From Methanobacteriota archaeon (lineage in GTDB: Archaea; Thermoplasmatota; Poseidoniia; Poseidoniales; Thalassarchaeaceae): a DNA stretch of 64,000 nt. Below the pieces are notes generated by a model. It did not search any database. It saw nothing but the letters and a program-made list of their open reading frames with translations, and was not told where the DNA came from. Within the stretch, counting starts at the first letter, position 1; each line of letters begins with the position of its first letter. This document shows, one piece after another, positions 2,993 to 64,000 of this stretch. The stretch spans positions 29,937 to 93,936 of the forward strand of contig PSPX01000002.1 in assembly GCA_004195715.1 (NCBI GenBank). Direction: 5' to 3'. A program made the position numbers and the translations under genes.

Positions 2993-3044
2993 CAACCAGA
3001 GGGCGTCCCTTGCCACCTTAAAGGAAAGTGGGTCATTGGATTTG

Positions 3045-4037
3045 TCAAAGCCTCGAAGAGAGAGGCTCTACGAGCGTCGTCCATAGCCTCAAGCCCTCTT
3101 CAGTAAGCTCACGATTGGTTCGCAATCCACTCCTTCTGCGGATGATTAGCCCCTGTGATTCGAGTCTCTTCAGGTGGTGCCCTACCAGTTGCTGACTAGT
3201 CTCAAGTCTCGATGCTAATTCCCTCTGTGTCGGAGAGGGTTGTCCGTCCTCTTGCTCGGCGATCGAGCGCAGCACCATCAGAGCCACGTCACTGAGTTGA
3301 TTGGTATCGACTGGACGAGGCAGATTGGATAACTCTGCGGCGCGGTCGACTGCCGAAGTGTAGTAGCGCAGTAGGCGACCGTCGCGCCTGCACCACACAC
3401 GGCCCTCGTTCTCGAGAATCCTGAGGTGGTGCACTGCCTGATGGTTGCCCATCTTGAGAGCGCGGATTATACCAGAGAGGTGGCAGCCGGGATGTGCAGT
3501 AAGAAAACCCTCGAGTCGCCCTCTCTGGTAGGTCCCGGCCAGTGTGCCAGAACCCTCGGTGACCCTGAGTTGTGAGAAGCGGCCCATGGATCTAGCCATC
3601 TTCGCCCTTGTCGGCTCATCTCCTGCTGAAACCAAAGCGAGAGAGAACAGGATGACTGCGAGGAATGCGGAGGCGTATGGGACAACTGGCAATGAAAAAT
3701 CTAGGTTCGCTCCTCTATCTTGAGATTCCGGGGTGTCTTGCTGTAATTCCTGCTGATCATCTGCGATGATTCCATTGATGGTCCATGTCCCAGCCGTCGA
3801 ACCACTCACTGAAACATCTACCAACTCGCCTACGATAGGACTGAGGAACAGCCCTGCCTCGGGCTGCGGCTCGTGCAGCAGGCCCTGAGAGTCCTCCAGC
3901 ATCCACACACCAGGGGATGTCCGCACCCAGGTGGCCTCCTGATCTGCGGCAACAGAGGGGGCAGAAACAATGAGCAGTGTAGTCAGCACAGCGATGATGG
4001 AAACCGTGCGTGTGGCACACGCTTGCGCCCTTGCCAT
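3045..4037 (-). CDS. Membrane-anchored winged helix-turn-helix transcription regulator (signal/TM, extracellular segment, TM, two wHTH)
   Basis: N-terminal hydrophobic stretch ending SVAA and a second TM (YASAFLAVILFSLALVSA). HTH-like segments HPGCHLSGIIRALKMGNHQAVHHLRILE and TQRELASRLETSQQLVGHHLKRLE. Confidence 0.7.
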   Translation of the reverse strand: MARAQACATRTVSIIAVLTTLLIVSAPSVAADQEATWVRTSPGVWMLEDSQGLLHEPQPEAGLFLSPIVGELVDVSVSGSTAGTWTINGIIADDQQELQQDTPESQDRGANLDFSLPVVPYASAFLAVILFSLALVSAGDEPTRAKMARSMGRFSQLRVTEGSGTLAGTYQRGRLEGFLTAHPGCHLSGIIRALKMGNHQAVHHLRILENEGRVWCRRDGRLLRYYTSAVDRAAELSNLPRPVDTNQLSDVALMVLRSIAEQEDGQPSPTQRELASRLETSQQLVGHHLKRLESQGLIIRRRSGLRTNRELTEEGLRLWTTLVEPLSSRL

Positions 4038-6585: not shown

Positions 6586-8190
6586 GGCCGTGGCGTGCGT
6601 GTGCAGATTGACGATTGTCAGGATGCAGGGCTTGGGCTGGAACCCCAGCATACGTTGGTAGTCGGTCTGATCCTGCCAGGTCGAACTGTGTACCATCGTG
6701 GTTCCTTTGTGGTTGCCTACGTAGTGCCCATGCACGTGACCAGTCACGAAGATATCGGGGACAGTTGAGATGACCATTCTATCCTCCGGCTCGGGGGAAA
6801 GCGGAGTCTTTCCACCCCATGACGGAGCTAGGTGCCTGCGTTCCATCATTGCCCTCATCGCTAATTCCGGAGATGAGTAAGTTACAGAGCGAAGTCCTGC
6901 GACGAAGTCGTCGATACTCTTGCCGTGGTACGACAGTATACGAACGCCGTGCAGACTGAAGTCGCACGGATTGCCCACGAACACTGCGTCTGAGTAGTCC
7001 TGTTGGACCTCTGGGTCCAACGCCGGTTGCGGCTCGGCTGGACGAACCGCGTCGTGGTTGCCCGGCAGGATCATCAAATCGACCCAGTCGGGAAGATCCT
7101 CCAGCAGCCTTGCCAGCTCGCCGTACTGGTTGAACAGGTCCTTGATGGCGAGGTGACGCTCTTGGCCCGGATAGATACCCACGCCGTCGACACCGTCGCC
7201 ACTCAGTACGAAGTACTTCACAGTCCGGGCTAGAGGGTCATTTCTGAACCACTCAATCATTTTCTCCCATTGTGGTGCTAGGAAGGTCTTACTGCCAACA
7301 TGAACATCGGACAGGAAGGCGGCTGAGACGGCCTCGGCCTCACTGGCAGCGGACTTGGAATGCCTTCCCAATGGAGGCATGTGGATGTCGCTCACCGAGA
7401 AATATGGATCCCTGTTCCCTATCACGAAGTGACCGCTGACTCCGACTACATCGTCGTTCATCAGGCCATCCAGCGATGGGTGGAAGCTAGAGGCCCCAGT
7501 GGGTTCCTTCAGCATGCACCTGACCTGCATGGAGTCGTCTTCGATATCAAACCACAGATAGCCTCCTTTGGACCACTTATCCACGCTGACAAGACCCACC
7601 AAAGTGACTTCGTAATCTCGACTCGAGTGACGCTGCCTGTTGCGCCACGCCTCCGAGACACTGATTGGGCGACGCGGCAGAACTCTACCTGAGATCATCA
7701 TCTGGCGAATCTGACGCAGCCTGTCAGAGAAGCACGACCTTATGTCGTTCATCTTACCCTCCGTAGTCGAGTTGCCCGTGATATCGAAGTGAATCTCAAT
7801 TTCCGAGTCGACATCCTTGGCCTGCATTGGGAAGTCGTCGAGGTTGTAGTAATCAAGGCCGTGGCGACGCACTGGAGGGGAGAGCACCTGGGACCCTACG
7901 GGTGCCAGTGTCCGGCCGATAGAAGATTGGCTCTCCGGATCCGGCAGAGTTGCCTGTTCGGACCTTGGAGTGCCCTGAGGTGCATCGATGGTCTCCTCAG
8001 TCGGGACCAGTGTCAGCATCTCCTCTACGGCCCTCTCACTGAGCATCACAACATTCGATCTCTGAGCTGCTTCGATTAAGGATGAGATGTCAGAGAGGCG
8101 CTGAATCCTCTCTTGGGCCGCCTTACCGAGCACGAGCAGCCCCGCAGCGGTCAGTTGACGCTGCCGATTCGCCCATTCCTCATCGACCAT
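6568..8190 (-). CDS. dp1: DNA polymerase D small (proofreading exonuclease) subunit DP1
   Basis: OB fold followed by calcineurin-like motifs SDVHVGS, GDGVDGVGIYPGQ, PGNHDAVR, YHGKSIDD, RRHLAP, GHVH. Confidence 0.95.
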   Translation of the reverse strand: MVDEEWANRQRQLTAAGLLVLGKAAQERIQRLSDISSLIEAAQRSNVVMLSERAVEEMLTLVPTEETIDAPQGTPRSEQATLPDPESQSSIGRTLAPVGSQVLSPPVRRHGLDYYNLDDFPMQAKDVDSEIEIHFDITGNSTTEGKMNDIRSCFSDRLRQIRQMMISGRVLPRRPISVSEAWRNRQRHSSRDYEVTLVGLVSVDKWSKGGYLWFDIEDDSMQVRCMLKEPTGASSFHPSLDGLMNDDVVGVSGHFVIGNRDPYFSVSDIHMPPLGRHSKSAASEAEAVSAAFLSDVHVGSKTFLAPQWEKMIEWFRNDPLARTVKYFVLSGDGVDGVGIYPGQERHLAIKDLFNQYGELARLLEDLPDWVDLMILPGNHDAVRPAEPQPALDPEVQQDYSDAVFVGNPCDFSLHGVRILSYHGKSIDDFVAGLRSVTYSSPELAMRAMMERRHLAPSWGGKTPLSPEPEDRMVISTVPDIFVTGHVHGHYVGNHKGTTMVHSSTWQDQTDYQRMLGFQPKPCILTIVNLHTHATASIPFA

Positions 8191-8262
8191 CCTTAGCGGG
8201 TGTGCCGGGAACGCTCATGATAATATCGCAGGAATTCCAGTGCCGGTGCCATAGGCACCGAT

Positions 8263-8952
8263 TCAGTCGTCCCAATCTGTGAGTGAAGCGAGATCGACCT
8301 CGGATATCTCCTCGGCCACCGTCTTCTTGGTGCCCTGCCATCTCATGCTGCCTTCCCACTCCTCGTCAGACGGGTCGAGCCCGGAGGTGTCTATCTCAGC
8401 ACCCTCGACCTGTCCGTTGGACGCTTTGGACTCCCTCTCCTCGTTTTCTTCCACCCTGTCTAGGGCCTCGAGAGCCAGTCTGAGCGCGAAGGCGGCGAAA
8501 GATCGCTTGTTGTCCAGCCGGTCGTTATCACCATAGTCCATCCTCCTGACTAGGAAATAATCCTCGGTTACCACTGCCACGTGCACCCTGCCAACCTCCT
8601 TGTCAGCGGTCGCACCCCCTGGTCCAGCGATTCCGGTGATGGAGATTGCCACGTCTGAGTCCGACTGGTAGCGCGCTCCTCGGGCCATCTGCACTGCGAC
8701 CTCGTGTGAAACGGCTCCGGCCTCGCCCTCGTCAAACGCCGTCTTCTCGACACCGAGTTCGCGCATCTTGGACCCGTTGGAGTAGACCACCCATCCTTGC
8801 TTGAACCATTCAGACGCTCCAGAGATGTCAGTAATCAATGATGCCAGCAGCCCTCCTGTGCAAGACTCGGCGGTCGATACGGTCCAACCTCGCATGCGAA
8901 GTCGGCGGGTCACTCGGGAAGCCAGTCCCGCAGTCTCTTCGACCACGTTCAC
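8263..8952 (-). CDS. cinA: CinA C-terminal/PncC nicotinamide-nucleotide amidohydrolase with acidic tail
   Basis: TAESCTGGL, GAVSHEVAVQMARGA, SITGIAGPGG motifs. Confidence 0.88.
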   Translation of the reverse strand: MNVVEETAGLASRVTRRLRMRGWTVSTAESCTGGLLASLITDISGASEWFKQGWVVYSNGSKMRELGVEKTAFDEGEAGAVSHEVAVQMARGARYQSDSDVAISITGIAGPGGATADKEVGRVHVAVVTEDYFLVRRMDYGDNDRLDNKRSFAAFALRLALEALDRVEENEERESKASNGQVEGAEIDTSGLDPSDEEWEGSMRWQGTKKTVAEEISEVDLASLTDWDD

Positions 8953-51951: not shown

Positions 51952-54900
51952 TTATTCGCGTCGGTGGAGGTACTCTGCACCATAGTAGTGCCACTGTTCC
52001 ATGGTCCAACCCGGCGGTAGGCCCTCAGGTGGCAGCGGGGGGGTCATCGGAGGAGGTGGTGGGGCTTCTCCAGTCAGATCAGTAGAGTAGGAGTCGTTTC
52101 CTTCATACGCCTCAATCTCAGAAGCGAAATCGATAGCCGACTCCGAATCGAGCCCTTGTCGACGCAGGACGATGGCCAGCGCCAGTACGAGAGCGACTGA
52201 CAGCATTAGTCCCAAAGCTATGAGGCCTGCTGACATAATCGAACTTGTGCCGCCGATCTTGACATTGGACTCTTCCTCATCGGGTTCGTCAATGACCTCC
52301 TCGGCCTCGGCTGCATATACTCGGAACTGCTCCTCTGTGACTCGGTCGAATCCGTTCTCGTCCTCGCCCTCGACAGAGAGAGTGACGTAGTCTCCTACTC
52401 CGAGTCCCTCCCCACTCACTGGGTAGACAATGAATGGACCATAGTTGTGCGACACTCCTGAGGAGTGGCAGATTCCGGTGATACTGTTGCATACCGTCCA
52501 AGTAATCCTGATGTCACTGAGCTCGTGCTGACCGACATTCTCTATGATAACAGAGGGATTTGAGCCATACTCGACGGTGCTGAAAGTCGCAACTAGGTCC
52601 GTGCCCCAATATAGCGGCATATCGTCGACAACAGTGACCGTAATCAGGTAGGCACTGGCGTCGCCGTGCCTATCCTCCAGAGTGATGGTCACAATCTCAG
52701 TCCCAGCCTCTTCCCAAGCCATGGTCAGGATACCGGTAATCGGGTTGAACTGAGCGGCTCCCGCGACGAAGGTCATCGCAGACGCCCAGATCTCCTCATC
52801 CGGGTCATCGATGTCCGTCATTCGATCAAGGAGTTCTAGGGTTATCCTGTCGCCAATCTCAACGGTGAATTCGTCAATTCCAGCCATTTCCATCCGCGGG
52901 GCGTCGTTGACATTCAGTACGTGGAATGTGATGACAGTGTCCGAGAATTTGACTCCGTCGCTGGCCCTCAATGTAAGGTCCACAACGCCAATGGAGTCGT
53001 CATCTATGGCACTGACAGAGAGGGTGTGCCCCGAGATACTCGCATCGACGAGGGCTCCGTTAGAGATTCCCAGTAACTCTAGGGACAGTCCAGAAACCGG
53101 CACCGAGTAGCCGTTGTCATCAGTGTCTGAAAGGTACTCAGACAGGCCGAAGCTGGCCGAGCCGCCCTCGTTGAAAGATTGCGAGGGGACTGGTGACCAC
53201 CTCGGGGCGCCGTTCTCCACCACGTTGAACATCATCATGCCGGAATTGCTGTCATCGCCGTCATTGATAGTGACGAATATACCCTGAGGAATAGGATTGC
53301 CTTGGCTGTCTCTGATGACCTCGCTAAACTCGACGACAATCTCAAGCGAGGACGAGTCCCACTCGATGAACTCGGGCGAGTTGCTGTCAATTTGCAGCAT
53401 TGAGAGCGGAGTCTCAGCATCGTACACCAGACCCATTAGGGAGACTCTTTCCTGAGTCTCAACCTTGACAGTCGGCATTCCTGCATACTGCGGGTAATCG
53501 CTATTCAGCACTGTGGGCAGGGCGTTGCGAAATTCAAAGGCCTCCTCGGACACCAGCCAGTCACCATACTGGCCACCAGCATCCACCCAACGGACCCTGA
53601 GGTCGTAATCGCCCACCTCAGCATTGAGGGGTGCGTCGAGGGTATGCACATAGCGAGCGTTACCTCCGCTGCCAACTAGGTCGGAGGAAGTTATCCACGA
53701 GTTGTCCCACATCTCAGTACCCGACTCGGCATAATGCAGAGTCGGCGTCATTGATGACATGTCGTCGACCATGTCGTTGGACAGAGCCGTGGACTCGAAC
53801 TGGATTGTACTGCCTCTCTCTATGGAGGTGGAAGCGATGGCGGTTGGTTGGTTGGCTATCGGAGCCATATCATGCAGGGCATTATCGTCCGTGTAGTCAT
53901 TGGAGGAGACACGGTCACCTGTCAGACCTGAGAGTTTCGCCCTGAAGGTAGTGGAGCCAGATGCATAGGGCTCTATGTCGGAGGTGTCGAACTGGATTGT
54001 GAGGATCTGAGTGCCTCCCGAAGCGAGATTGGAAATTGCTGAGCCGCCAACATAGACCTCATCAAGTCCCACTAACTCGTAGATTGATATCTCGCCACCA
54101 TCGTTGTAGGGGTCGACACCGTAGTTAGTCACCTCAACTGAGAGGTCGAGAATATCGCTAGGCACGAATCCGAGATTGCCGTTCTGGTTGTCGGCATCGA
54201 AGTCGGAAATGCCGACATCGATGAGCGGCGCCATGTCCAAGTCCGCTGCTGTTAGGAAATCGTTGTAAGAGGTGTGAGAGCCATCCATCAAAGCAACTAC
54301 CGGCCAGAAGTTCTCGTACTGGGTGTTGCCTGAAGTGGCCCTGACGGTGTTGAGTGGAACGGTCCAAGTCCTCTCGGCGGCGTTATTAGGAGTCAGGGTC
54401 AATTCCTCGAAGCCGTCCCCATTGCTGTTCAGCAACCACTCTCTCCAGTTGTGGTGAGGTCGAACACCATTATCGTAGGCGTCACCGCCAATTTTCTCGG
54501 TCACTGCTGCGTAGAGGTAGACAGTCACGGATGACAATGAACCGAGGTAGGTCGACTCTACGGTGATGGTAACCTCGTCGCCGGCGCTGTTCAGGACGAT
54601 AGAGAGTTCCATTGCGTAGTCGGATACATCCGAGCCCATGCACCCCCCGGCCGAGTAGTCGGCGTCGTAGTAGTTGGTTCCGGCGGAGCCGACCTTGTAG
54701 CAGGTCCCGCTCTGGGCGTCGGCGAAGCCAAATGTCGGGTAGCCGCTTGAGGCCGCCATCACGTGGTCCGTCCTGGAGATCGGGCCGTCGGAGGGCCAAC
54801 CTCCGGAAGAGGACTCGAAGAACGAGACGAAGGTGAAATCCTCACCGTTCGAGCTCTTGAGGTTGTCAAGCGAAGGGGCCGCGCTGTCCATGCACGGCCC

Positions 54901-55131
54901 GCACCAGTGCGCTCCGACGTATTCGCCGAACACAGCGTGCCCCGGGCTGGTTGCATACAGGGGCATTTCCTTCTGCTTCAGTTGTTCGCGTTCCTCGACC
55001 TTATCGTCCATCGCCATGAAGCCTGTGAAGGACATCATGACCACCAAGGCTGCCAATGCTGCCGGTTGAACGATTGATAGCATTCGCACTCTAGTCATCA
55101 TTTTTCCCGTAGCGAGGCGCCGTATAACCAT
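51952..55131 (-). CDS. Large surface protein: thioredoxin/Omp28-like domain (WCGPC), Ig/cadherin-like repeats, C-terminal TM and Pro-rich tail
   Basis: EYVGAHWCGPC; NDAP/NALP/NGAP domain starts; TM LIALGLMLSVALVLALAIVL; tail PPPPP...GLPPGWTMEQWHYYG. Confidence 0.75.
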   Translation of the reverse strand: MVIRRLATGKMMTRVRMLSIVQPAALAALVVMMSFTGFMAMDDKVEEREQLKQKEMPLYATSPGHAVFGEYVGAHWCGPCMDSAAPSLDNLKSSNGEDFTFVSFFESSSGGWPSDGPISRTDHVMAASSGYPTFGFADAQSGTCYKVGSAGTNYYDADYSAGGCMGSDVSDYAMELSIVLNSAGDEVTITVESTYLGSLSSVTVYLYAAVTEKIGGDAYDNGVRPHHNWREWLLNSNGDGFEELTLTPNNAAERTWTVPLNTVRATSGNTQYENFWPVVALMDGSHTSYNDFLTAADLDMAPLIDVGISDFDADNQNGNLGFVPSDILDLSVEVTNYGVDPYNDGGEISIYELVGLDEVYVGGSAISNLASGGTQILTIQFDTSDIEPYASGSTTFRAKLSGLTGDRVSSNDYTDDNALHDMAPIANQPTAIASTSIERGSTIQFESTALSNDMVDDMSSMTPTLHYAESGTEMWDNSWITSSDLVGSGGNARYVHTLDAPLNAEVGDYDLRVRWVDAGGQYGDWLVSEEAFEFRNALPTVLNSDYPQYAGMPTVKVETQERVSLMGLVYDAETPLSMLQIDSNSPEFIEWDSSSLEIVVEFSEVIRDSQGNPIPQGIFVTINDGDDSNSGMMMFNVVENGAPRWSPVPSQSFNEGGSASFGLSEYLSDTDDNGYSVPVSGLSLELLGISNGALVDASISGHTLSVSAIDDDSIGVVDLTLRASDGVKFSDTVITFHVLNVNDAPRMEMAGIDEFTVEIGDRITLELLDRMTDIDDPDEEIWASAMTFVAGAAQFNPITGILTMAWEEAGTEIVTITLEDRHGDASAYLITVTVVDDMPLYWGTDLVATFSTVEYGSNPSVIIENVGQHELSDIRITWTVCNSITGICHSSGVSHNYGPFIVYPVSGEGLGVGDYVTLSVEGEDENGFDRVTEEQFRVYAAEAEEVIDEPDEEESNVKIGGTSSIMSAGLIALGLMLSVALVLALAIVLRRQGLDSESAIDFASEIEAYEGNDSYSTDLTGEAPPPPPMTPPLPPEGLPPGWTMEQWHYYGAEYLHRRE

Positions 55132-56027: not shown

Positions 56028-56333
56028 ATGATTGTCACAGTCTTCCGATCCCGACTCAATCTGGATGTCAATGAGGAGTACACGGAGATAGCAGTCCGAA
56101 TGAGCGAATTGGCCAAGACCATGCCCGGATACATCTCGCACAAGTCCTTCACTGCAGAGGATGGCGAGAGGGTCACCATCGTCGAGTTCGAGTCGATGGA
56201 GGGACAACTCGAATGGCGAAGGAATGCCGAGCATGCCGAGGCGATGCGGCTCGGGCGGTCCACATTCTACGAGGAATTCAAGATTCAGGTCTGCGAGATG
56301 ATACGCATGAGCGAATACCAGAAATCGGACTGA
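56028..56333 (+). CDS. Antibiotic biosynthesis monooxygenase (ABM) family protein
   Basis: MPGYISH...IVEFESMEGQLEWRRNAEHAEAMRLGR. Confidence 0.85.
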   Translation: MIVTVFRSRLNLDVNEEYTEIAVRMSELAKTMPGYISHKSFTAEDGERVTIVEFESMEGQLEWRRNAEHAEAMRLGRSTFYEEFKIQVCEMIRMSEYQKSD

Positions 56334-56368
56334 TTAGCGCGGCACGAGGAAGGGAGAGTGGTTTCCTC

Positions 56369-56848
56369 ATGGACTGGGTCAACGACTTCAAGGACAGGGT
56401 GACTGATGTCGGCTGGACCTCGGGTACAGTCTTCCGTGAGTTCATGAGGTTCAACGTCACTGGTTGCTTCAATTCCGCGTTCGCTTTCGCAGTTTATCAG
56501 ATTCTGTACTGGGCGAATCTCTGGGATGCTCACACAGCGGTGTCAGCCTGGGTTGTGTCCAACATCATAGGGAACGTCGAAGCCCATTATATGCACTACA
56601 GATTCACCTTCAAGTCGACATTTGCCTACTCCACTAGCCTCAACAGGGCATTCTGGTGCTACACTGCGCAACTGGCAGTGACAACTTCTCTCGAATACAT
56701 CATGATAGAGAAGTGGTTGATTAATCACTACGTCGCTTGGCCAATCAACTCCTGCTTGTTCGGATTCCTCAACTTCGTGCTCATCCGCTGGCTAGCCTTC
56801 CCTCCTGAACTCGATGATGCGTATCTCGAGCGATTGTCGGATGATTGA
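56369..56848 (+). CDS. GtrA family membrane protein
   Basis: EFMRFNVTG, HYRFTF, FLNFVLIRWLAF; 4 TM. Confidence 0.75.
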   Translation: MDWVNDFKDRVTDVGWTSGTVFREFMRFNVTGCFNSAFAFAVYQILYWANLWDAHTAVSAWVVSNIIGNVEAHYMHYRFTFKSTFAYSTSLNRAFWCYTAQLAVTTSLEYIMIEKWLINHYVAWPINSCLFGFLNFVLIRWLAFPPELDDAYLERLSDD

Positions 56849-56896: not shown

Positions 56897-58306
56897 ATGA
56901 GAGACAGTAGCGGATGGAGACCTACGGCCTACCGCTCCCACACCATAGGGCAGGTGGTGTCCGACGGCGCGGACATGGTTGGCTCCGAAGTAACCGTTGC
57001 GGGCTATGCGGAAACAGTGCGAGGACGCGGAGGAATCTGCTTCCTGATGCTGCGTGACGGCACCGGTCGCATACAGGCGTTCTTGAAGAGAGACAACATG
57101 GACGAGGGACTTTTCAGCGCCATTCAATCAGCGACTAGAGAGTCGACCATCCAAGTCACTGGAACGGTGGCTCAGAAGCGTCCTCCAAAACTCGCCGAGG
57201 GCGAGTCCGCGCCGCCTCCGGAGTTTGAGGTCAATGTGACAGTTGCGAGAGTTCTCGCCGGTGCTGCTGCTCCACTACCCGTAGGTGTGACTGACGATGT
57301 TCACGTAGGTCTCGATGTCAGACTGGACAATCGTCACCTCGACCTACGACGAGCGCATGTTAACGCGATGTTTCAACTGCGAGGGAAAGTACTGCAGTAC
57401 GGCCGTGACCACCTCATCTCCGAGGGCTTTCAAGAAATCAACACCCCGAAAATCATCGCTGCTGCTGCAGAAGGCGGCACCAACCTATTCCCGATAAAGT
57501 ATTTTGAGACAGACGCCTATCTCTCGCAAAGCCCTCAGCTGTACAAGCAGCTCGCGGTCCTCGGTGGACTCGAGCGTGTCTTTGAGATCGGCCCGGCCTT
57601 CCGTGCCGAGAAGCACGACACCTACCGCCACCTGAACGAGTTCATCTCCTTCGACATCGAGGGCGCTTGGATGGACGACGAGGACGTGATGGGAGTTCAG
57701 GAAAGGATGATTCACCATATCTGGAGCCAAGTTGCAGTCAACGACCAGGGCCTCATCGATATGGTCAACGAATACCGTGCCGGCCAGGGCCAAGAGCCTG
57801 TCACAGTCGAGGTCCCAAATGTGCCGTTCCCACGCATCCCCTACTGCGATGCCATCGAGATTGTCAAGTCGGGCGGTGGCCAGATAGAGTGGGGTGATGA
57901 CATCGAGAGTCACCACTGTGACATTGTCGCAGCACAGTATCCCGGTTTCCACTTTATCCTGTGCTGGCCGATGTCGATGAAACCGTTCTACATTCACCAC
58001 AAGGAAGACGAGAAGGGTTCCTCGGGCGGCCAGTTGAGTCGCGGCTTCGATCTCAACTACGGGCGAGATGAGATGACCAGCGGTGGTCAGCGCGAGCACC
58101 GAGTCGACGTGCTTGAGCAGAACCTGCGCAACATGGGTCTTGAGCCGGCAGACTTCGCCTTCTATACAGATGGATTCCGCTACGGCGCGCCTCCACATGC
58201 TGGCTGGGGACTTGGCGTAGCCCGCCTACTGATGGTACTGACTGATGCCGGCAATGTCCGTGAGGTCGTGCTTTTCCCGCGCGACCGGAGCCGAGTCACT
58301 CCGTGA
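56897..58306 (+). CDS. aspS: Aspartyl-tRNA synthetase (archaeal type)
   Basis: OB anticodon domain, AEGGTNLF, SQSPQLYKQ, FRAE...HLNEF, GGQREH, PPHAGWGLG, FPRD. Confidence 0.95.
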   Translation: MRDSSGWRPTAYRSHTIGQVVSDGADMVGSEVTVAGYAETVRGRGGICFLMLRDGTGRIQAFLKRDNMDEGLFSAIQSATRESTIQVTGTVAQKRPPKLAEGESAPPPEFEVNVTVARVLAGAAAPLPVGVTDDVHVGLDVRLDNRHLDLRRAHVNAMFQLRGKVLQYGRDHLISEGFQEINTPKIIAAAAEGGTNLFPIKYFETDAYLSQSPQLYKQLAVLGGLERVFEIGPAFRAEKHDTYRHLNEFISFDIEGAWMDDEDVMGVQERMIHHIWSQVAVNDQGLIDMVNEYRAGQGQEPVTVEVPNVPFPRIPYCDAIEIVKSGGGQIEWGDDIESHHCDIVAAQYPGFHFILCWPMSMKPFYIHHKEDEKGSSGGQLSRGFDLNYGRDEMTSGGQREHRVDVLEQNLRNMGLEPADFAFYTDGFRYGAPPHAGWGLGVARLLMVLTDAGNVREVVLFPRDRSRVTP

Positions 58307-59073
58307 CCGAAAATAACGGGTATCTAAGGCCCCTACGCGAAACGGGGACCATGGCCAAGCCGAGATTCGCCTACTTGCTCTTGAAGGAGCATCCGTACGG
58401 TCGCGAGATGCTGCGTCAGATACTCTCTGAGGGATTTGTTCCCGAGATTATCATTGAGGAGGATTCGCCAGTCGGAGATGAGGAGCGCGAGAAGTTTCTC
58501 GACCGAATTGAGGGCAACCCGATAGCTCCACCGATAGCCGAGCAGGCTGCTGAAAATGGAATCCCCCTAGTGACTGTCCCGATTCACAAGTCACCCGAGG
58601 TCATGCCTCACTTAGAGGGATTGGATCTCAACCTCATCGTATTCGGAGGAACCCGGATAATCCGAGGAGATATACTTGACTACCCCTCTGACGGGGTAAT
58701 CAACGCTCATCCCGGGCTGCTGCCCGAATGCAGAGGATCGGCCTCGCCTGCATGGTCGGTGTACCACGATATCCGCGTCGGCTCGACCTGTCACTTCTGT
58801 GACAACGGCATAGACACGGGAGAGATGTTAATCAAGCGCGAAGTCGCGGTGAAGAAGGGTATGACCTACGAGGATCTGTGCTACGAGACTCTGGTTCTGG
58901 CTGGGGTCTTGATGAAGGAGGCATTGATGGCATACGAGGACGGCCGCTGGCATGAGATGCGCCGTCCGCAAGGTGAAAGCGAGCACCCGACCTTCCGCAA
59001 TGCGTCGGAAGAGGTGCTCGAAGTTGTCCACCAGAAACTGCGCGACCAGACGTACGCTCATTACGTGGATTAG
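58303..59073 (+). CDS. 10-formyl-THF-dependent formyltransferase family protein (Fmt/PurN fold)
   Basis: INAHPGLLPECRGS and DNGIDTG motifs. Start either GTG 58303 (overlapping the aspS stop) or ATG 58351. Confidence 0.8.
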   Translation: MTENNGYLRPLRETGTMAKPRFAYLLLKEHPYGREMLRQILSEGFVPEIIIEEDSPVGDEEREKFLDRIEGNPIAPPIAEQAAENGIPLVTVPIHKSPEVMPHLEGLDLNLIVFGGTRIIRGDILDYPSDGVINAHPGLLPECRGSASPAWSVYHDIRVGSTCHFCDNGIDTGEMLIKREVAVKKGMTYEDLCYETLVLAGVLMKEALMAYEDGRWHEMRRPQGESEHPTFRNASEEVLEVVHQKLRDQTYAHYVD

Positions 59074-59081
59074 GTGACAAG

Positions 59082-59882
59082 ATGAACGATGGACTACTAA
59101 ATGATGGGTTTCCCTTCGCCGAGAGGGCACTAGATGGACAGACTGCACTGGTTTGCGGTGCTTCGAAGGGAATCGGGCGCGCCTGCGCGCTGATGCTTGC
59201 TCGTGCGGGCGCCCGCGTGGTCGCGTGTGCCCGTTCTGTAGTCGACCTCGATTCGCTGGTTGCAGAAATGCACGGAGACGGGCACGAGGCTCTTGCACTG
59301 GATCTTGAAGATTTGAGCGCCGTACGCGAGGCCGTATCCGATATGGACACCATACACATCCTCGTGAATAACTCCGGTGGACCTCCCGGCGGACCGCTGC
59401 TTGAGAATACCGTCGATGAATTTGAGGGGCCGTTCCGCCGCCACCTGCATGCCGCCCACACGATCACACAGGCACTAGTGCCCGGCATGGAGGCCTCTGG
59501 CACAGGGCGAATCGTGAACATCATCTCTACCTCGGTGCGCGAGCCGATTGACAACATAGGCCTCTCAAACACCCTTCGCGGAGCGATGGCATCGTGGGCC
59601 AAGTCGCTGTCGCGCGAGTTGCCTGCCTGCGTGACCATCAACAATATCATGCCCGGTTTCACCGACACTGACAGGCTGGGCTCACTGGCTGCATCCATCT
59701 CCGAGCGCACTGGCAAGCCGGTCGAGGATGTTCGAGATGATTGGATGAACGGGGTGCCCATTCAACGCCTCATCGATCCATTGGAAACTGCCGCAGCGGT
59801 CACTTGGCTCTGTCTTCCGAGCAGCAGCGCTGTTCGCGGCATCAGTCTAGCAGTAGATGGCGGGAGAATGCGTTCAATCTGA
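59082..59882 (+). CDS. SDR oxidoreductase
   Basis: CGASKGIG, LVNNSGGP, SNTLR (no YxxxK), NNIMPG, AVDGG. Confidence 0.88.
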   Translation: MNDGLLNDGFPFAERALDGQTALVCGASKGIGRACALMLARAGARVVACARSVVDLDSLVAEMHGDGHEALALDLEDLSAVREAVSDMDTIHILVNNSGGPPGGPLLENTVDEFEGPFRRHLHAAHTITQALVPGMEASGTGRIVNIISTSVREPIDNIGLSNTLRGAMASWAKSLSRELPACVTINNIMPGFTDTDRLGSLAASISERTGKPVEDVRDDWMNGVPIQRLIDPLETAAAVTWLCLPSSSAVRGISLAVDGGRMRSI

Positions 59883-59895
59883 ATGGGGTCCCGCT

Positions 59896-61137
59896 ATGCG
59901 GTTTGACATCTTCTTCTCAATCTCCCAGACACCGGACACGTCCGGTCACACACCCTCCGAAAGCGAGATGTTTAACAATTTCTTCGAACAGGTCGAGTTA
60001 GCCGACAAACTTGGGTTCGGAGTCGGATGGGTCGCTCAGGCGCATCTCTCGACCGTTGTTCAGAAACGGAACAGCAGACCTGTGGTCCCACACTATCCTG
60101 GCGAGGTTGGTCTTTGTACCGACTTCTTCCAAGTCGCAAGTCACATGTTCGCCCGCACTGAACGGATGGAGGTCGGGAGTGCAGTGATGTCGATACTCGC
60201 TTCAGGCGGGCCAATCGCCCAGGCAGAGCGGGTCGGTGCTTTCCTAGCTCTGCACGGCATGGACCCGAGCGAGAGTCGTAGACTGCACATCGGATTCTCT
60301 GCAGGACGCTTCGAGTTCATGGCACGGCCATATGGCATCGTGCCGCGCGACGCAGTCGAAGAGGCGGCGTGGCCCGCACTGCGTGGACAGGTCTTCGCCG
60401 AGGCCTCGGAGGTCTTTCTCCGGCTACTAAACGGCGAAGTGGTCTCCTCGGATATGATTCTCCCCACAATACTGACTCGTTCGAACTTCCGCTCTGATGA
60501 GGACTGGAGGGGTGTTCAGGAGGCTGCTGTGTCACTGCGAGGTCTCGATTCGCCCCCAGATTCCATCGAAATCGCTAGGCGTTACGAGTTTGAGGAGATC
60601 AAGACAATCCCTCAGGAATGGCGCCGGGAACTGCTCAACCTCGTGCTCGGCAGCCACGACCCTAACTTACAGGTCGAAGTGAACAAGCACAGGCCGGTGC
60701 AGGTATTCAACCTCAGCATCACCCCTCCGCACATCATCGAAGAGACGCATGACAGGTTCCGTAAGCACTACCATCCCGATGGAGGGGCATGGGAGCGCAG
60801 CATGATGCCGCGCACCACCATGGTCTTCGTGAACGACGAAGAGGGACTCACTCCCAATGAGCAGAACGATGCTGCGATGGAGGAGGCGAGGGCTGCGCTC
60901 TCGACGTACTGGAACGCACTGGAGGGGACCATTGATCCGGCGAAAATCGAGCGGGCGACGGATAATGCGGTAATCGGCAATGTCGATAGTGTCTGCGAGC
61001 AGATACTCGAGAGGTTTCACCCCGAAGATCGTCTGATGTGCTGGTTCGACTTCTTCAACCACGACAGTGAGCGCGTCCAGAGGAACATGGCGGCATTCAT
61101 GACCAAGGTCGCACCGCGCGTCAACGGAGGTGTCTGA
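59896..61137 (+). CDS. Luciferase-like (LLM class) flavin-dependent oxidoreductase
   Basis: EQVELADKLGFGVGWVAQAH, RTERMEVGSAV, AER...GRL-type pattern, C-terminal GNVDSVCEQI. Confidence 0.8.
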   Translation: MRFDIFFSISQTPDTSGHTPSESEMFNNFFEQVELADKLGFGVGWVAQAHLSTVVQKRNSRPVVPHYPGEVGLCTDFFQVASHMFARTERMEVGSAVMSILASGGPIAQAERVGAFLALHGMDPSESRRLHIGFSAGRFEFMARPYGIVPRDAVEEAAWPALRGQVFAEASEVFLRLLNGEVVSSDMILPTILTRSNFRSDEDWRGVQEAAVSLRGLDSPPDSIEIARRYEFEEIKTIPQEWRRELLNLVLGSHDPNLQVEVNKHRPVQVFNLSITPPHIIEETHDRFRKHYHPDGGAWERSMMPRTTMVFVNDEEGLTPNEQNDAAMEEARAALSTYWNALEGTIDPAKIERATDNAVIGNVDSVCEQILERFHPEDRLMCWFDFFNHDSERVQRNMAAFMTKVAPRVNGGV

Positions 61138-62323
61138 GATGAGCGAGGACGGGAGCGGCAGGCCATCGAGCGTGACCCCCGGCAGGCCGGGTTCCGCAAT
61201 CTATCCAACCAATCCCCTCGGCGAGCAGTATGAGGGTATCGCGACTGGTCGCGATGTCGAGTGGGAGCCTCTAGTCGACTTTCGCCGCATGGATATCTCC
61301 GAGAACACCATCCACGGTGCCATCGCATGGGCCCACGGCACCGAGATAGTGCACTCCTTCGGAGGTAACGTACTGGTCTACGGGCGCTCGATGATGAAGC
61401 CGCTGATGATGAAGACATTTCAAGAGGCTTTGGCCTCGGACGGACTGACCAGCGAACAGATGGCCATAGCCTGCTCCTCGCACAACGGCGACACTGAGCA
61501 CGTGGCAGCCGCGCAGTCACTGCTGACAGAGTCTGAATGGGGGCTGATGCAGTGCCCACTGGACGTCCCACTCATTCAGTTCGGCCGGCAGGTCAGACGC
61601 CCACGCCGCTGGTTCCACACCTGTTCTGGAGAACATGCAGCGATGCTCAAGGCACTGCGGAGTATGGGCATCAATAGGGCCGGCTACACCCTGCCGAGCT
61701 CACCTTGGTTCTCGATGTACCTCGATGTGCTCCGGCGCATGATGGGAAAACCCGACTGGGAGCCACAGAGGGTCGCCAAGGACGGCTGCGGATTGCCTAC
61801 GGTCTCCAACACCGTTGACGAGCTTGCAGTGATGTTTGCAGGGCTCGTCCGCGAGAAGGACGATGACTGGATCTGGGGTGCCATGAACAGCCATCCCGAC
61901 CTCGTCGGCGGATTCAACCGTCTCGATTCTACCTGCCTGAAGGCGGGCGAGGGCAGGATCCTAGCCAAGGAGGGCGCCGACGGTCTGCTCGGTCTGTCTA
62001 TTATCCACCCTGACTGGCCTGAAGGCCTAGGGATAGTAATCAAGATTGCCCACGGTTGGAACAGCCAGGCCACTTGGTACGTCGCCCGCGCTGTACTAGG
62101 AGTGCTTGGAATTCGTCTGCGTAACCCGTATCCACTGCATCGACAGAAGGCATTCATAGTTCCGGGAATGGTACCATCGCAGTACCTCGAGGAACTTGAG
62201 AGCGTCGTTACCTGGGATGAGTGGGACCCTGACCGGGACAGATTCTCGCTGGATTGGAAGGAATACTCAGCAGGGATGACTCGTTCTGACCCGTTCGCCA
62301 ACGAAGGCCCGGGAGACTCGTGA
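61130..62323 (+). CDS. Class 3 (Rhizobium AnsA-type) asparaginase-family protein with an altered metal motif
   Basis: RSMMKP, CSSHNG, TCSGEH (family NCSGKH), DGCG, KEGADG. Confidence 0.75.
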   Translation: MSEMSEDGSGRPSSVTPGRPGSAIYPTNPLGEQYEGIATGRDVEWEPLVDFRRMDISENTIHGAIAWAHGTEIVHSFGGNVLVYGRSMMKPLMMKTFQEALASDGLTSEQMAIACSSHNGDTEHVAAAQSLLTESEWGLMQCPLDVPLIQFGRQVRRPRRWFHTCSGEHAAMLKALRSMGINRAGYTLPSSPWFSMYLDVLRRMMGKPDWEPQRVAKDGCGLPTVSNTVDELAVMFAGLVREKDDDWIWGAMNSHPDLVGGFNRLDSTCLKAGEGRILAKEGADGLLGLSIIHPDWPEGLGIVIKIAHGWNSQATWYVARAVLGVLGIRLRNPYPLHRQKAFIVPGMVPSQYLEELESVVTWDEWDPDRDRFSLDWKEYSAGMTRSDPFANEGPGDS

Positions 62324-63828
62324 TGGAACCGGACAAGTGCTGCGAATCAGGCTGCATCCCGTGTGAGCGCGATCCTGATGGACAAGAGCCTCTGGACCTG
62401 TGCAATTACATCGGAGGGGAGTTCGTATGCCACTCCGGTGACGAGTGGATCAACGTCCTCGAACCAGCCACTGGCCACCGCTTCGCAAGAGCCCCCCTGT
62501 CCAGAGAGAGCGATGTCGGCGATGCCGTCAGCGCCGCGAGGCAGGCACAGCCGGCATGGGGTGCTCTGAGCCACTCCGAGCGTGCCGACTGGCTGGACCG
62601 CATCGCCGATGCGCTCGAGGCGCGATACGAGGATGTCGCAGCGCTCGAGAGCCGTGACACCGGCAAGCCAATCTCGCTGGCCCGTGACGTCGATGCACAG
62701 CGCTCAGTGTCCAACTTCCGCTTCTTCGCGGGCATGCTGCGAGAGCACGAAGAGGAAGTCTTCGAGATGGCCAGCGCGACCAACTACGTCGTCCATAAGC
62801 CGGTCGGAGTCGGCGCTCTAATCACTCCTTGGAACCTGCCGCTCTACCTACTCTCGTGGAAGATTGCACCATCGATTGGCATGGGTAACACCGTGGTGTG
62901 CAAGCCCAGTGAGTTGACTCCGATGACCGCGGACCTGCTGATGCAAATCATCGACGAGGTCGGCCTGCCAGCTGGAGTGGTCAATCTGGTGCACGGGGAC
63001 GGAGCCGGCGCTGGAGCCCATCTGGTGGCCCACTCGGACGTCGATCTGGTCTCGTTCACCGGTGGAACGTCAACCGGTGAGAAGGTGGCCGCATCGGCCG
63101 CTCCTGCGTTCAAGAAACTCAGCCTCGAGCTCGGCGGTAAGAATGCGAGCATTGTTTTCGCAGACTGCAATATGGAATCCACAGTGGCAGGGGTCATCCG
63201 AGCGGGCTTCCTGAACCAAGGCCAGGTCTGCCTGTGCGGCTCTAGGGTTCTGATTGAGGACTCAATTTACGACGAATTCCGTGACCGCTTCGTTAACGCG
63301 GTCGAAGCGATGCGAATGGGCGATCCCTCGGACGAGGCCACCGACCTCGGGGCACTTATCTCAGGGGGACACCTCGAGAAGGTTCAGGGCTACGTCGAGC
63401 TGGCCAAGCAGGAAGGAGGCAGTCTGCTCACCGGCGGAACGCCGTGCATGCCCACAGGATTCGAGCATGGCAACTGGATGGCGCCCACGGTCATCGAGGG
63501 ACTGAGTTCCGATTCGCGGTGCTCGACCGAGGAGATCTTCGGGCCCGTGGTCACGCTCCACCCATTCAGCAGCGAAGACGAGGCAGTGACCATCGCCAAC
63601 AACACCCGCTACGGGCTCGCCGGAAGCGTATGGACGGGTGACCTTGCGAGGGGCAAGCGGATTTCCGAGGCCATGGACACAGGGATGGTATGGGTCAACA
63701 CCTGGCTGCACAGGGACCTGCGAGTTCCATTCGGTGGCGTCAAGGACAGCGGAGTGGGCCGCGAGGGCGGCAAGTGGAGTCTGGGCTTCTTCTCAGAGGC
63801 CATGAACGTCTGTGTCAAGCACGACTGA
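62320..63828 (+). CDS. Aldehyde dehydrogenase, 2-aminomuconate/2-hydroxymuconate semialdehyde dehydrogenase (ALDH8) type
   Basis: [45 protein letters not shown]. Confidence 0.85.
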
Positions 63829-63871
63829 TGCAGTAAGAGTGAAAGTCCGCTCTTGGGCGATGCGAAGCAAT

Positions 63872-64000
63872 ATGGCGCCAGTGGGCATTGTCGGATTGGG
63901 TGCATACGTCCCACCCAATATCATGACCAACGACGACTGGGCCGAGATAATCGATACTAGCGACGAGTGGATAACCACCAAGACCGGCATCAAAGAGCGT
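63872..64000 (+). CDS. fabH: 3-oxoacyl-ACP synthase III (FabH) family, 5' fragment running off the window
   Basis: Manual translation [43 protein letters not shown] carries the FabH hallmark DTSDEWIxxxTGIxER. Confidence 0.82.

Follow-up and report, generated by a model that had tools for sequence, protein, structure and literature searches.

Genes at the locus

We analyzed a stretch of DNA of 64,000 nucleotides (the window) from a Poseidoniales (Marine Group II) archaeon whose genome of 1.45 Mb is 92% complete; the window lies on contig C25. Its right-hand end holds six consecutive genes on one strand, which encode a formyltransferase-fold protein (FT), an atypical short-chain dehydrogenase/reductase (SDR), a luciferase-like flavin monooxygenase (LLM), an Asparaginase_II-family hydrolase (AnsII), an aldehyde dehydrogenase (ALDH) resembling 2-aminomuconate-6-semialdehyde dehydrogenase (AMSDH), and a beta-ketoacyl synthase III (KAS III, FabH). 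These genes, which an earlier note on the window had presented as a candidate operon of an undescribed pathway continuing from aspS, are the subject of the present study:

56897-58306, + strand: aspS, non-discriminating type (open reading frame (ORF) list, NCBIfam)
58303-59073, + strand: FT, Formyl_trans_N (formyltransferase-fold) protein, 256 aa (Pfam PF00551)
59082-59882, + strand: atypical SDR, 266 aa (Pfam PF00106/PF13561)
59896-61137, + strand, ATG start: LLM, 413 aa (Pfam PF00296)
61130-62323, + strand: AnsII, 397 aa (Pfam PF06089)
62320-63828, + strand: ALDH, AMSDH-like, 502 aa (Pfam PF00171)
63872-64000, + strand, running off the window: 5' part of FabH, bacterial-type KAS III (full ORF at 7809-8789 of region L001, 326 aa)

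The coordinates and spacings given in the earlier note for the six same-strand genes are exact in the ORF list: the intergenic distances from FT to FabH are +8, +13, -8, -4 and +43 nt, and the start of FT overlaps the stop of aspS by 4 nt. Each of its family calls was confirmed by Pfam, and the motifs it quoted for the ALDH and for the SDR (NNSGGP and SNTLR) are all present in the sequence. The downstream sequence that it had asked for was obtained. Beyond FabH the contig encodes a secreted BNR-like protein followed by giant surface proteins on the opposite strand, so the gene run terminates at FabH. Further parts of the pathway discussed below lie outside the window, with amnBA-ridA on contig C31 of the same genome and tryptophan 2,3-dioxygenase encoded elsewhere.

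Conservation across Poseidoniales

The LLM is encoded by a single-copy gene in 147 of 151 Poseidoniales genomes, covering 22/22 genera. Synteny was assessed in 20-kb regions from 20 Poseidoniales genera, onto each of which the window proteins were mapped. The genes for LLM, AnsII and ALDH are contiguous in 19 of the 20 regions, and because this synteny extends over loci from 20 genera, the arrangement is far beyond chance. An SDR orthologue lies within a few kb of this core in every region (20/20). FT is found in 13/20 regions, and in five others (L032-L036) an alpha/beta hydrolase fills the slot upstream of the SDR; the two are mutually exclusive, with 0/20 regions carrying both. A tandem pair of LigB-family genes is located 0.5-3 kb past the ALDH in 13 regions out of 20. 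The conserved unit is thus (FT or hydrolase)-SDR-LLM-AnsII-ALDH, to which the LigB pair is often added, and in the ocean archaea of Marine Group II five of the six genes studied here form a core operon. The expectation of an operon of an undescribed pathway is borne out by this synteny, and in the co-occurrence search for the LLM-AnsA-ALDH core that the earlier note had suggested, the genes were found together and not scattered, the LLM-AnsII pair recurring even in bacteria.

The sixth gene behaves differently. FabH follows the ALDH in only 5/20 regions, all of one family, and in none of the 52 bacterial loci described below, and it is therefore a separable local neighbor outside the conserved unit and not the operon member that the earlier note had taken it to be. 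The same counts largely refute a second suggestion of that note, in which the genes would form a small biosynthetic cluster that makes an N-formylated acyl or amino-acid metabolite via the KAS III. The position of FabH on the same strand, 43 nt after the ALDH, and the formyltransferase-fold gene at the head of the cluster would fit such a function, but an alpha/beta hydrolase occupies the FT slot in L032-L036 and the conserved partners of the unit are catabolic ring-cleavage genes; we consider this explanation extremely improbable.

Three side observations concern the composition of these loci. A bacterial-type FabH is present here in an archaeal genome and adjoins the operon only in some genera of one Poseidoniales family. 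In one Poseidoniales family (L032 10634-12543, with equivalents in L033-L038) a TPR protein is inserted between the SDR and the LLM, and this insertion often also has an endonuclease/exonuclease/phosphatase-family gene. Near aspS, the loci of that family (L032-L038) carry GST-like and glutathione-peroxidase-like ORFs.

Expression

Four marine/hydrothermal metatranscriptome runs yielded contigs from close relatives that match the cluster at 92-99% identity over the full length of the cluster. Individual RNA-derived contigs span the junctions SDR-LLM, LLM-AnsII and AnsII-ALDH. This bridging is consistent with co-transcription in contigs that lack strand information and may include DNA carry-over, and the co-expression that the earlier note had wanted checked is to this extent supported at three junctions. 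The RNA contigs X1, X3 and X4 match the window from position 58303 on and diverge upstream, as X2 does at 58305. Since they diverge at the aspS/FT junction, the upstream neighbor of FT in the related strains is not aspS, and the adjacency of aspS to FT is a strain-level feature.

Bacterial relatives and the link to tryptophan

A profile built from three distant full-length LLM members retrieved 52 loci from species-representative genomes. All of them are bacterial; Oligoflexales and Bdellovibrionales predominate, and some of the contigs bear the label Myxococcota. The gene directly downstream of the LLM is, in most of these loci, an Asparaginase_II gene, whose product is 25-32% identical to the AnsII of the window. 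Because this rare pair stays adjacent across two domains, there is strong evidence that LLM and AnsII are functionally coupled.

The bacterial loci also connect the pair to tryptophan. In Bdellovibrionota, AnsII is often fused to a PF04199 domain (kynurenine formamidase, KynB family), and the AnsII::KynB gene is followed by a convergent gene for tryptophan 2,3-dioxygenase; at least 15 bacterial loci unite the LLM, the fusion and this dioxygenase. In L116/L117 the genes LigB-LigB-RidA-Aldedh-FAH-FAH-LLM-AnsII::KynB form a single same-strand operon, and Trp_dioxygenase is encoded on the other strand about 2.3 kb further downstream; L114 and L104 show the same themes. A block of amnBA-ridA-ALDH-FAH-FAH genes lies upstream in six bacterial loci, in which we take the two FAH genes to be a putative 4-oxalocrotonate decarboxylase and hydratase. 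As a side observation, an Amidohydro_1 protein and a divergent MFS transporter precede LLM-AnsII in an Oligoflexales-like genome (L105 7478-9948); the transporter could be a substrate importer and the Amidohydro_1 protein an alternative deformylase.

The distribution of marker enzymes was determined in bacteria with the LLM-AnsII pair, in Poseidoniales and, for the first marker, in control genomes:

Tryptophan 2,3-dioxygenase: 27/27 bacteria with LLM-AnsII; 99/101 Poseidoniales; 2/14 control genomes
AmnB orthologue: 23/27 bacteria with LLM-AnsII; 97/101 Poseidoniales
Kynureninase (TIGR01814, over cut-off): 1/27 bacteria with LLM-AnsII; 1/61 Poseidoniales
3-Hydroxyanthranilate dioxygenase (3-HAO, PF06052): genuine in 1/61 Poseidoniales (162 bits), with one more at the cut-off (25.5 bits)
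KynB (PF04199): 0/61 Poseidoniales; fused to AnsII in Bdellovibrionota loci

The fusion, the adjacent tryptophan 2,3-dioxygenase and the presence of this enzyme in nearly all Poseidoniales sustain the link to kynurenine-type catabolism that the earlier note had drawn. Kynureninase (426 bits) and 3-HAO (162 bits) are both genuine in a single genome of the 61 (G033, same family, another genus), which could reflect lateral acquisition of the canonical pathway or contamination of the bin.

The ring-cleavage genes of the archaeon studied here lie together on one strand of contig C31, with AmnB at 1993-3051, AmnA at 1057-1983 and RidA at 446-1060. AmnB matches the 2-aminophenol 1,6-dioxygenase beta subunit PDB 8ihg_A (E 3e-102) and AmnA a solved alpha subunit of 2-aminophenol 1,6-dioxygenase (E 2e-41). 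The RidA protein scores 97.2 bits, below the TIGR00004 cut-off of 106.25. Bacterial 2-aminomuconate deaminases belong to the RidA family (bioRxiv 10.64898/2026.06.05.730449).

These contexts bear on the simplest explanation of the locus, a fortuitous housekeeping neighborhood in which a true asparaginase feeds aspS next to a generic ALDH and a generic SDR. In its favor, most Poseidoniales loci do have a non-discriminating aspS next to the cluster, and asparaginase is the annotated function of the AnsII family. Chance proximity is nevertheless hard to reconcile with the pairing of a rare LLM with AnsII across two domains, with the AnsII-KynB fusion, or with bacterial operons in which the pair accompanies amnBA-ridA-ALDH beside tryptophan 2,3-dioxygenase. 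Moreover, aspS-like matches in the bacteria are weak (28-33% identity) and some 8-9 kb away from the pair, and the RNA contigs of related strains part from the window exactly at the aspS/FT junction. We regard a housekeeping neighborhood as very unlikely.

Enzyme families and active-site residues

The ALDH scores 554 bits against PF00171, and its best solved relatives, the top seven PDB entries, are all AMSDHs (E 1.7e-139 to 1e-132). Residues Arg120 and Arg464 of the Pseudomonas AMSDH (4i1w), which bind the substrate carboxylate, align with R128 and R465 of the ALDH, and the catalytic Cys (GQVCLC) and Glu (ELGGKN) are kept. The protein is 44-48% identical to the ALDH of the bacterial amnBA-ridA-ALDH-FAH-FAH-LLM operons. 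Against TIGR03216, the equivalog model of 2-hydroxymuconic semialdehyde dehydrogenase, it scores 561.5 bits, below the cut-off of 693.25, which by this measure makes it a relative and not a member of that equivalog. Judged by sequence, the ALDH is AMSDH-like, and the type assigned to it in the earlier note withstands the comparison with solved structures and their substrate arginines. At its N-terminus (62320-62400) it has a Cys-rich extension of about 25 residues that is not in AMSDH structures and that may be a metal or redox site.

The SDR carries Ser and Arg (SNTLR) where classical SDRs carry Tyr and Lys. Its closest structures are 5va8 and 5idx (NNAGGPP / LSNxxR), and the subfamily motifs NN(A/S)GGPP and LSNxxR are common to the uncharacterized entries 5va8, 5vps and 5idx. 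In 15 of 19 bacterial genomes with LLM-AnsII, the best homologue of the SDR (33-38% identity) lies 1-5 kb from amnB, which ties the SDR to the ring-cleavage genes in bacteria; the earlier note had linked SDRs of this type to bacterial kynurenine/3-hydroxyanthranilate clusters. The bacterial homologues reside in ridA-aldh-SDR or in amnB-amnA-ridA-aldh-FAH-FAH-SDR operons, the latter with the SDR last (L123). Because they sit in or near amnB operons, we place the SDR in the part of the pathway that would follow ring cleavage.

FT scores 49.1 bits against PF00551 and falls below all NCBIfam equivalog cut-offs (fmt, 54.7 vs 201.5; PurN, 37.2 vs 150.1; and ArnA too), and by these scores it does not belong to any characterized equivalog (Fmt, PurN, ArnA or sugar N-formyltransferases). 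It is closest to the hydrolase domain of 10-formyl-tetrahydrofolate (10-formyl-THF) dehydrogenase, with which its catalytic His (INAHPGLLP) and Asp (DNGIDTG) align. FT, the alpha/beta hydrolase that replaces it and the KynB domain fused to bacterial AnsII are all proposed as deformylases because FT and hydrolase alternate in the same slot, KynB is missing in the order and the fusion exists in bacteria; the fusion is consistent with consecutive deformylation and AnsII steps. With about even odds, we name FT as a candidate deformylase of N-formylkynurenine or 2-formamidophenol, acting by transfer to tetrahydrofolate or by hydrolysis. The archaeal FT may thereby salvage the formyl group into the folate one-carbon (C1) pool rather than release formate.

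The LLM scores 39.2 bits against PF00296 (cut-off 27.9), with only residues 1-183 aligned, and it has no NCBIfam model and no significant PDB sequence match. Among 1.84 billion representative proteins it has 329 relatives at E<=1e-3, mostly fragments of the same family. Its AlphaFold model (pLDDT 87, pTM 0.88) retrieves LLM-superfamily folds throughout the top 50 Foldseek matches, with a TM-score (target) of up to 0.75 and a probability of 1.00, and according to this model the LLM is a (beta/alpha)8 TIM barrel of the LLM superfamily. The structural neighbors include RslO1, LuxA/B, SsuD, RutA, 3,6-diketocamphane monooxygenase, the riboflavin lyase RcaE and the F420-dependent Mer and Adf. Sequence identity to these neighbors, luciferase and the type II Baeyer-Villiger enzyme 3,6-diketocamphane monooxygenase among them, is 12-17%. 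The LLM of the Polyangiaceae-labelled contig L083 has no exact-sequence record.

Three other settings for the LLM were considered and dropped once the bacterial contexts showed tryptophan 2,3-dioxygenase, KynB and amnBA: a Rut-like pyrimidine pathway, a LadA-type route from alkane to alcohol to aldehyde, and a folate/Mer-like C1 role for LLM and FT together.

AnsII scores 162.9 bits against PF06089, with Pfam covering residues 50-330 of 397, and its solved relatives are solely the Rhizobium etli L-asparaginase II entries ReAIV/ReAV (8cly, 7os3; E 1e-17). The residues of the two Ser-Lys catalytic tandems, S87-x-x-K90, S117 and K280, align with ReAIV motifs and are kept in 28 archaeal and bacterial members, and C165 and C220 are likewise kept across archaeal and bacterial members. 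The genomic context of AnsII argues for a beta-aspartyl substrate other than L-asparagine.

This assignment departs from a first alternative of the earlier note, according to which the LLM would oxygenate an N-aromatic or amide substrate, the AnsA-like protein would free ammonia and the SDR would reduce the product toward 2-oxoadipate. Part of that proposal stands: the ALDH is AMSDH-like, the SDR is tied to ring-cleavage genes, and a variant catabolic route for an N-aromatic compound is what the locus suggests. Release of ammonia is the only activity known for the PF06089 family, acting on asparagine, and would favor the remainder. However, a RidA-family protein, the usual type of 2-aminomuconate deaminase, adjoins amnBA and is the better candidate for deamination; the strict pairing of AnsII with the LLM and its fusion to a KynB-type domain place AnsII upstream of ring cleavage, by the kynurenine-forming steps; and the source of 2-aminophenol would be left unexplained. 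We consider the alternative as written unlikely, and release of ammonia by AnsII less likely than release of aspartate and 2-aminophenol from an oxygenated kynurenine.

A proposed route from tryptophan to 2-aminophenol

We propose that FT-SDR-LLM-AnsII-ALDH supply the middle and lower sections of a tryptophan catabolism that dispenses with kynureninase and is core to Marine Group II, a reading to which we assign a probability of roughly 0.68. Its most secure part, which we hold to be likely, is the assignment of the genes to a kynureninase-independent pathway from tryptophan to 2-aminophenol. In Poseidoniales and the bacterial carriers both ends of such a pathway are present and the known connecting enzymes are missing, and because the LLM and AnsII are the only genes that always accompany both ends, we assign them to the gap between kynurenine and 2-aminophenol.

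The pathway would begin with tryptophan 2,3-dioxygenase, encoded elsewhere, which would yield N-formylkynurenine. Deformylation, which could precede or follow the reactions of the LLM and AnsII, would be the task of FT in this lineage, of the alpha/beta hydrolase in other Poseidoniales and of the fused KynB domain in bacteria. In a Baeyer-Villiger reaction with aryl migration, the LLM would insert an oxygen between the ketone carbon of kynurenine and its aromatic ring, giving a 2-aminophenyl beta-ester of aspartate that possibly rearranges to N4-(2-hydroxyphenyl)asparagine. AnsII would cleave this product through an asparaginase-type beta-aspartyl acyl-enzyme into L-aspartate and 2-aminophenol. 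In the lower part, AmnBA (contig C31) would open the ring to 2-aminomuconate 6-semialdehyde, the ALDH of the window would oxidize it to 2-aminomuconate, the RidA-family protein beside amnBA would deaminate the latter, and the atypical SDR would work on a later intermediate.

We lean slightly towards the specific mechanism at the center of this scheme, in which the LLM serves as a Baeyer-Villiger oxygenase, with the aryl ketone of either kynurenine or N-formylkynurenine as its target, and AnsII is the hydrolase of the beta-aspartyl 2-aminophenyl ester or amide. The scheme would use each fold for known chemistry, since luciferase and the diketocamphane monooxygenases, which are type II Baeyer-Villiger enzymes, are LLMs, and the proposed LLM product would bear exactly the beta-aspartyl acyl group handled by asparaginases. 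An aryl ketone is cleaved by the same logic by 4-hydroxyacetophenone monooxygenase (HAPMO) together with an esterase.

The same genomic context could also be served by other chemistry. Some further enzyme, or AnsII itself, might split kynurenine to anthranilate, which the LLM would decarboxylate oxidatively to 2-aminophenol in the manner of salicylate hydroxylase. Such a sequence would likewise connect tryptophan 2,3-dioxygenase to AmnBA, and decarboxylative hydroxylation is catalyzed by other classes of flavin monooxygenases. However, no LLM is known for this reaction, the C-C cleavage of kynurenine requires pyridoxal phosphate (PLP) chemistry that a Ser-Lys amidohydrolase fold does not offer, and kynureninase was found in just one of 61 archaeal and one of 27 bacterial genomes. 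The asparaginase catalytic residues kept in AnsII also suit a beta-aspartyl substrate better. A route through anthranilate therefore appears improbable to us, and we retain cleavage by oxygen insertion and hydrolysis.

Several observations weigh against the proposed pathway. This assembly, which is 92% complete, yielded no tryptophan 2,3-dioxygenase, and in Poseidoniales the gene for that enzyme never adjoins the cluster, its 4-kb neighborhoods containing no pathway genes. Two bacterial FAH proteins used as tblastn queries (E 1e-5) had no match in this genome. The Baeyer-Villiger step is itself deduced from what must join kynurenine to 2-aminophenol. A flavin reductase for the LLM was found neither in the operon nor, in seven Poseidoniales loci, in the gaps that precede FT; PF01613 occurs in 31/41 genomes, in none of them close to the cluster, and this genus lacks it. 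We know of no precedent for deformylation of an aryl formamide by a formyltransferase fold, and FT retains the residues of folate-dependent formyltransferases. The alpha/beta hydrolase that replaces FT is nearer to generic carboxylesterases than to known kynurenine formamidases, among which it matches the Drosophila enzyme 4e11 marginally (E 0.0026). Finally, the Cys-Lys-Cys zinc site of AnsII is incomplete, with Glu at the Lys position (CSGEHA vs CSGKHA).

Marine Group II archaea rank with the most abundant heterotrophic organisms in surface ocean waters. If the proposed pathway is true, it would define a new branch in tryptophan catabolism, one of the best-studied amino-acid pathways, with two new activities: a luciferase-like kynurenine Baeyer-Villiger monooxygenase and an asparaginase-fold beta-aspartyl-aminophenol hydrolase. 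Whether it amounts to a third exit from kynurenine beside the kynureninase and kynurenine 3-monooxygenase (KMO) routes, standard in Marine Group II and in many predatory Bdellovibrionota, we judge to be an evenly balanced question. A pathway of this kind would explain why Marine Group II possess tryptophan 2,3-dioxygenase and nitrobenzene-type amnBA without the classical kynurenine enzymes, and it would give a natural role to the 2-aminophenol meta-cleavage module, hitherto known mainly from xenobiotic degraders. It would further require new annotations for metagenomic genes, in their thousands, that currently go by the names 'L-asparaginase II' or 'alkanesulfonate monooxygenase-like', and would bear on the turnover of marine dissolved organic nitrogen by an abundant uncultured group. 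No description of a route from kynurenine to aspartate and 2-aminophenol was found in the full-text literature outside subscription journals.

Other features of the region

On either side, at 51952-55131 (- strand) and at L001 10344-15547 (- strand), the region is bordered by very large acidic proteins of 1059, 1298 and 487 aa that are secreted or located at the surface; in the one of 1298 aa, Cys-containing modules recur alongside Asp-rich repeats of a calcium-binding-like kind. Positions 56028-56848, between aspS and the gene for a GCD14-type tRNA methyltransferase, contain a small ORF with an ABM domain (antibiotic biosynthesis monooxygenase-like) and another for a membrane protein of the GtrA family. 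These two ORFs overlap by about 120 nt as listed, and one of the starts is probably located further downstream.

Comparison with known systems

The lower part of the proposed pathway resembles the amn-type meta-cleavage of 2-aminophenol (amnBACD... of Pseudomonas sp. AP-3, and the cnb/nbz clusters of bacteria that degrade nitrobenzene and chloronitrobenzene), with which this archaeon shares AmnB, AmnA, an AMSDH-type ALDH and a RidA-type candidate deaminase, while the operon of Bdellovibrionota also has two FAH-family genes, like amnE/amnF. In the known amn/cnb/nbz systems 2-aminophenol comes from nitroaromatic xenobiotics, whereas here the module is joined to tryptophan 2,3-dioxygenase. The LLM and AnsII are in no known amn cluster. 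The archaeon further differs from these clusters in having its genes split over two contigs, with no FAH decarboxylase or hydratase found and an atypical SDR added.

The canonical kynurenine pathway (tryptophan 2,3-dioxygenase (TDO), KynB, KMO, kynureninase, 3-HAO, aminocarboxymuconate semialdehyde decarboxylase (ACMSD) and AMSDH) has the same start in tryptophan 2,3-dioxygenase, an enzyme found in 99/101 Poseidoniales though not in this assembly, and, at its end, the same AMSDH-type dehydrogenase acting on 2-aminomuconate semialdehyde. Between these points the two routes would diverge. The canonical one has kynureninase, 3-HAO and KynB, which are found in 1/61, 1/61 and 0/61 Poseidoniales, respectively. 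Its cut is PLP-dependent and gives alanine, whereas the proposed cut would consist of oxygen insertion and hydrolysis and would give aspartate, and the substrate of ring cleavage would be 2-aminophenol instead of 3-hydroxyanthranilate.

For the hydrolytic step, the nearest known enzymes are the class 3 L-asparaginases ReAIV/ReAV of Rhizobium etli, with which AnsII has the fold family and the Ser-Lys catalytic residues in common. The beta-aspartyl acyl group of their reaction would be retained, but the leaving group, which is ammonia in ReAIV/ReAV, would be 2-aminophenol. AnsII also differs in the replacement of the zinc-site Lys by Glu and in its N- and C-terminal extensions and, unlike these enzymes, occurs in strict pairing with an LLM and, in bacteria, as a fusion with a KynB-type domain.

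For the cleavage as a whole, the closest parallel is HAPMO with its aryl-ester hydrolase in Pseudomonas fluorescens ACB, which by the same logic converts an aryl ketone to an aryl ester and hydrolyzes the ester to an acid and a phenol. HAPMO belongs to type I (FAD/NADPH, Rossmann-type), while the LLM of the window, known from its sequence and a model, is only 12-17% identical to any solved LLM; and the hydrolase proposed here has an asparaginase fold, where that of the HAPMO system is an esterase. That the LLM fold is capable of Baeyer-Villiger oxygenation is established by the type II diketocamphane monooxygenases, which are among the structural neighbors of the window LLM.

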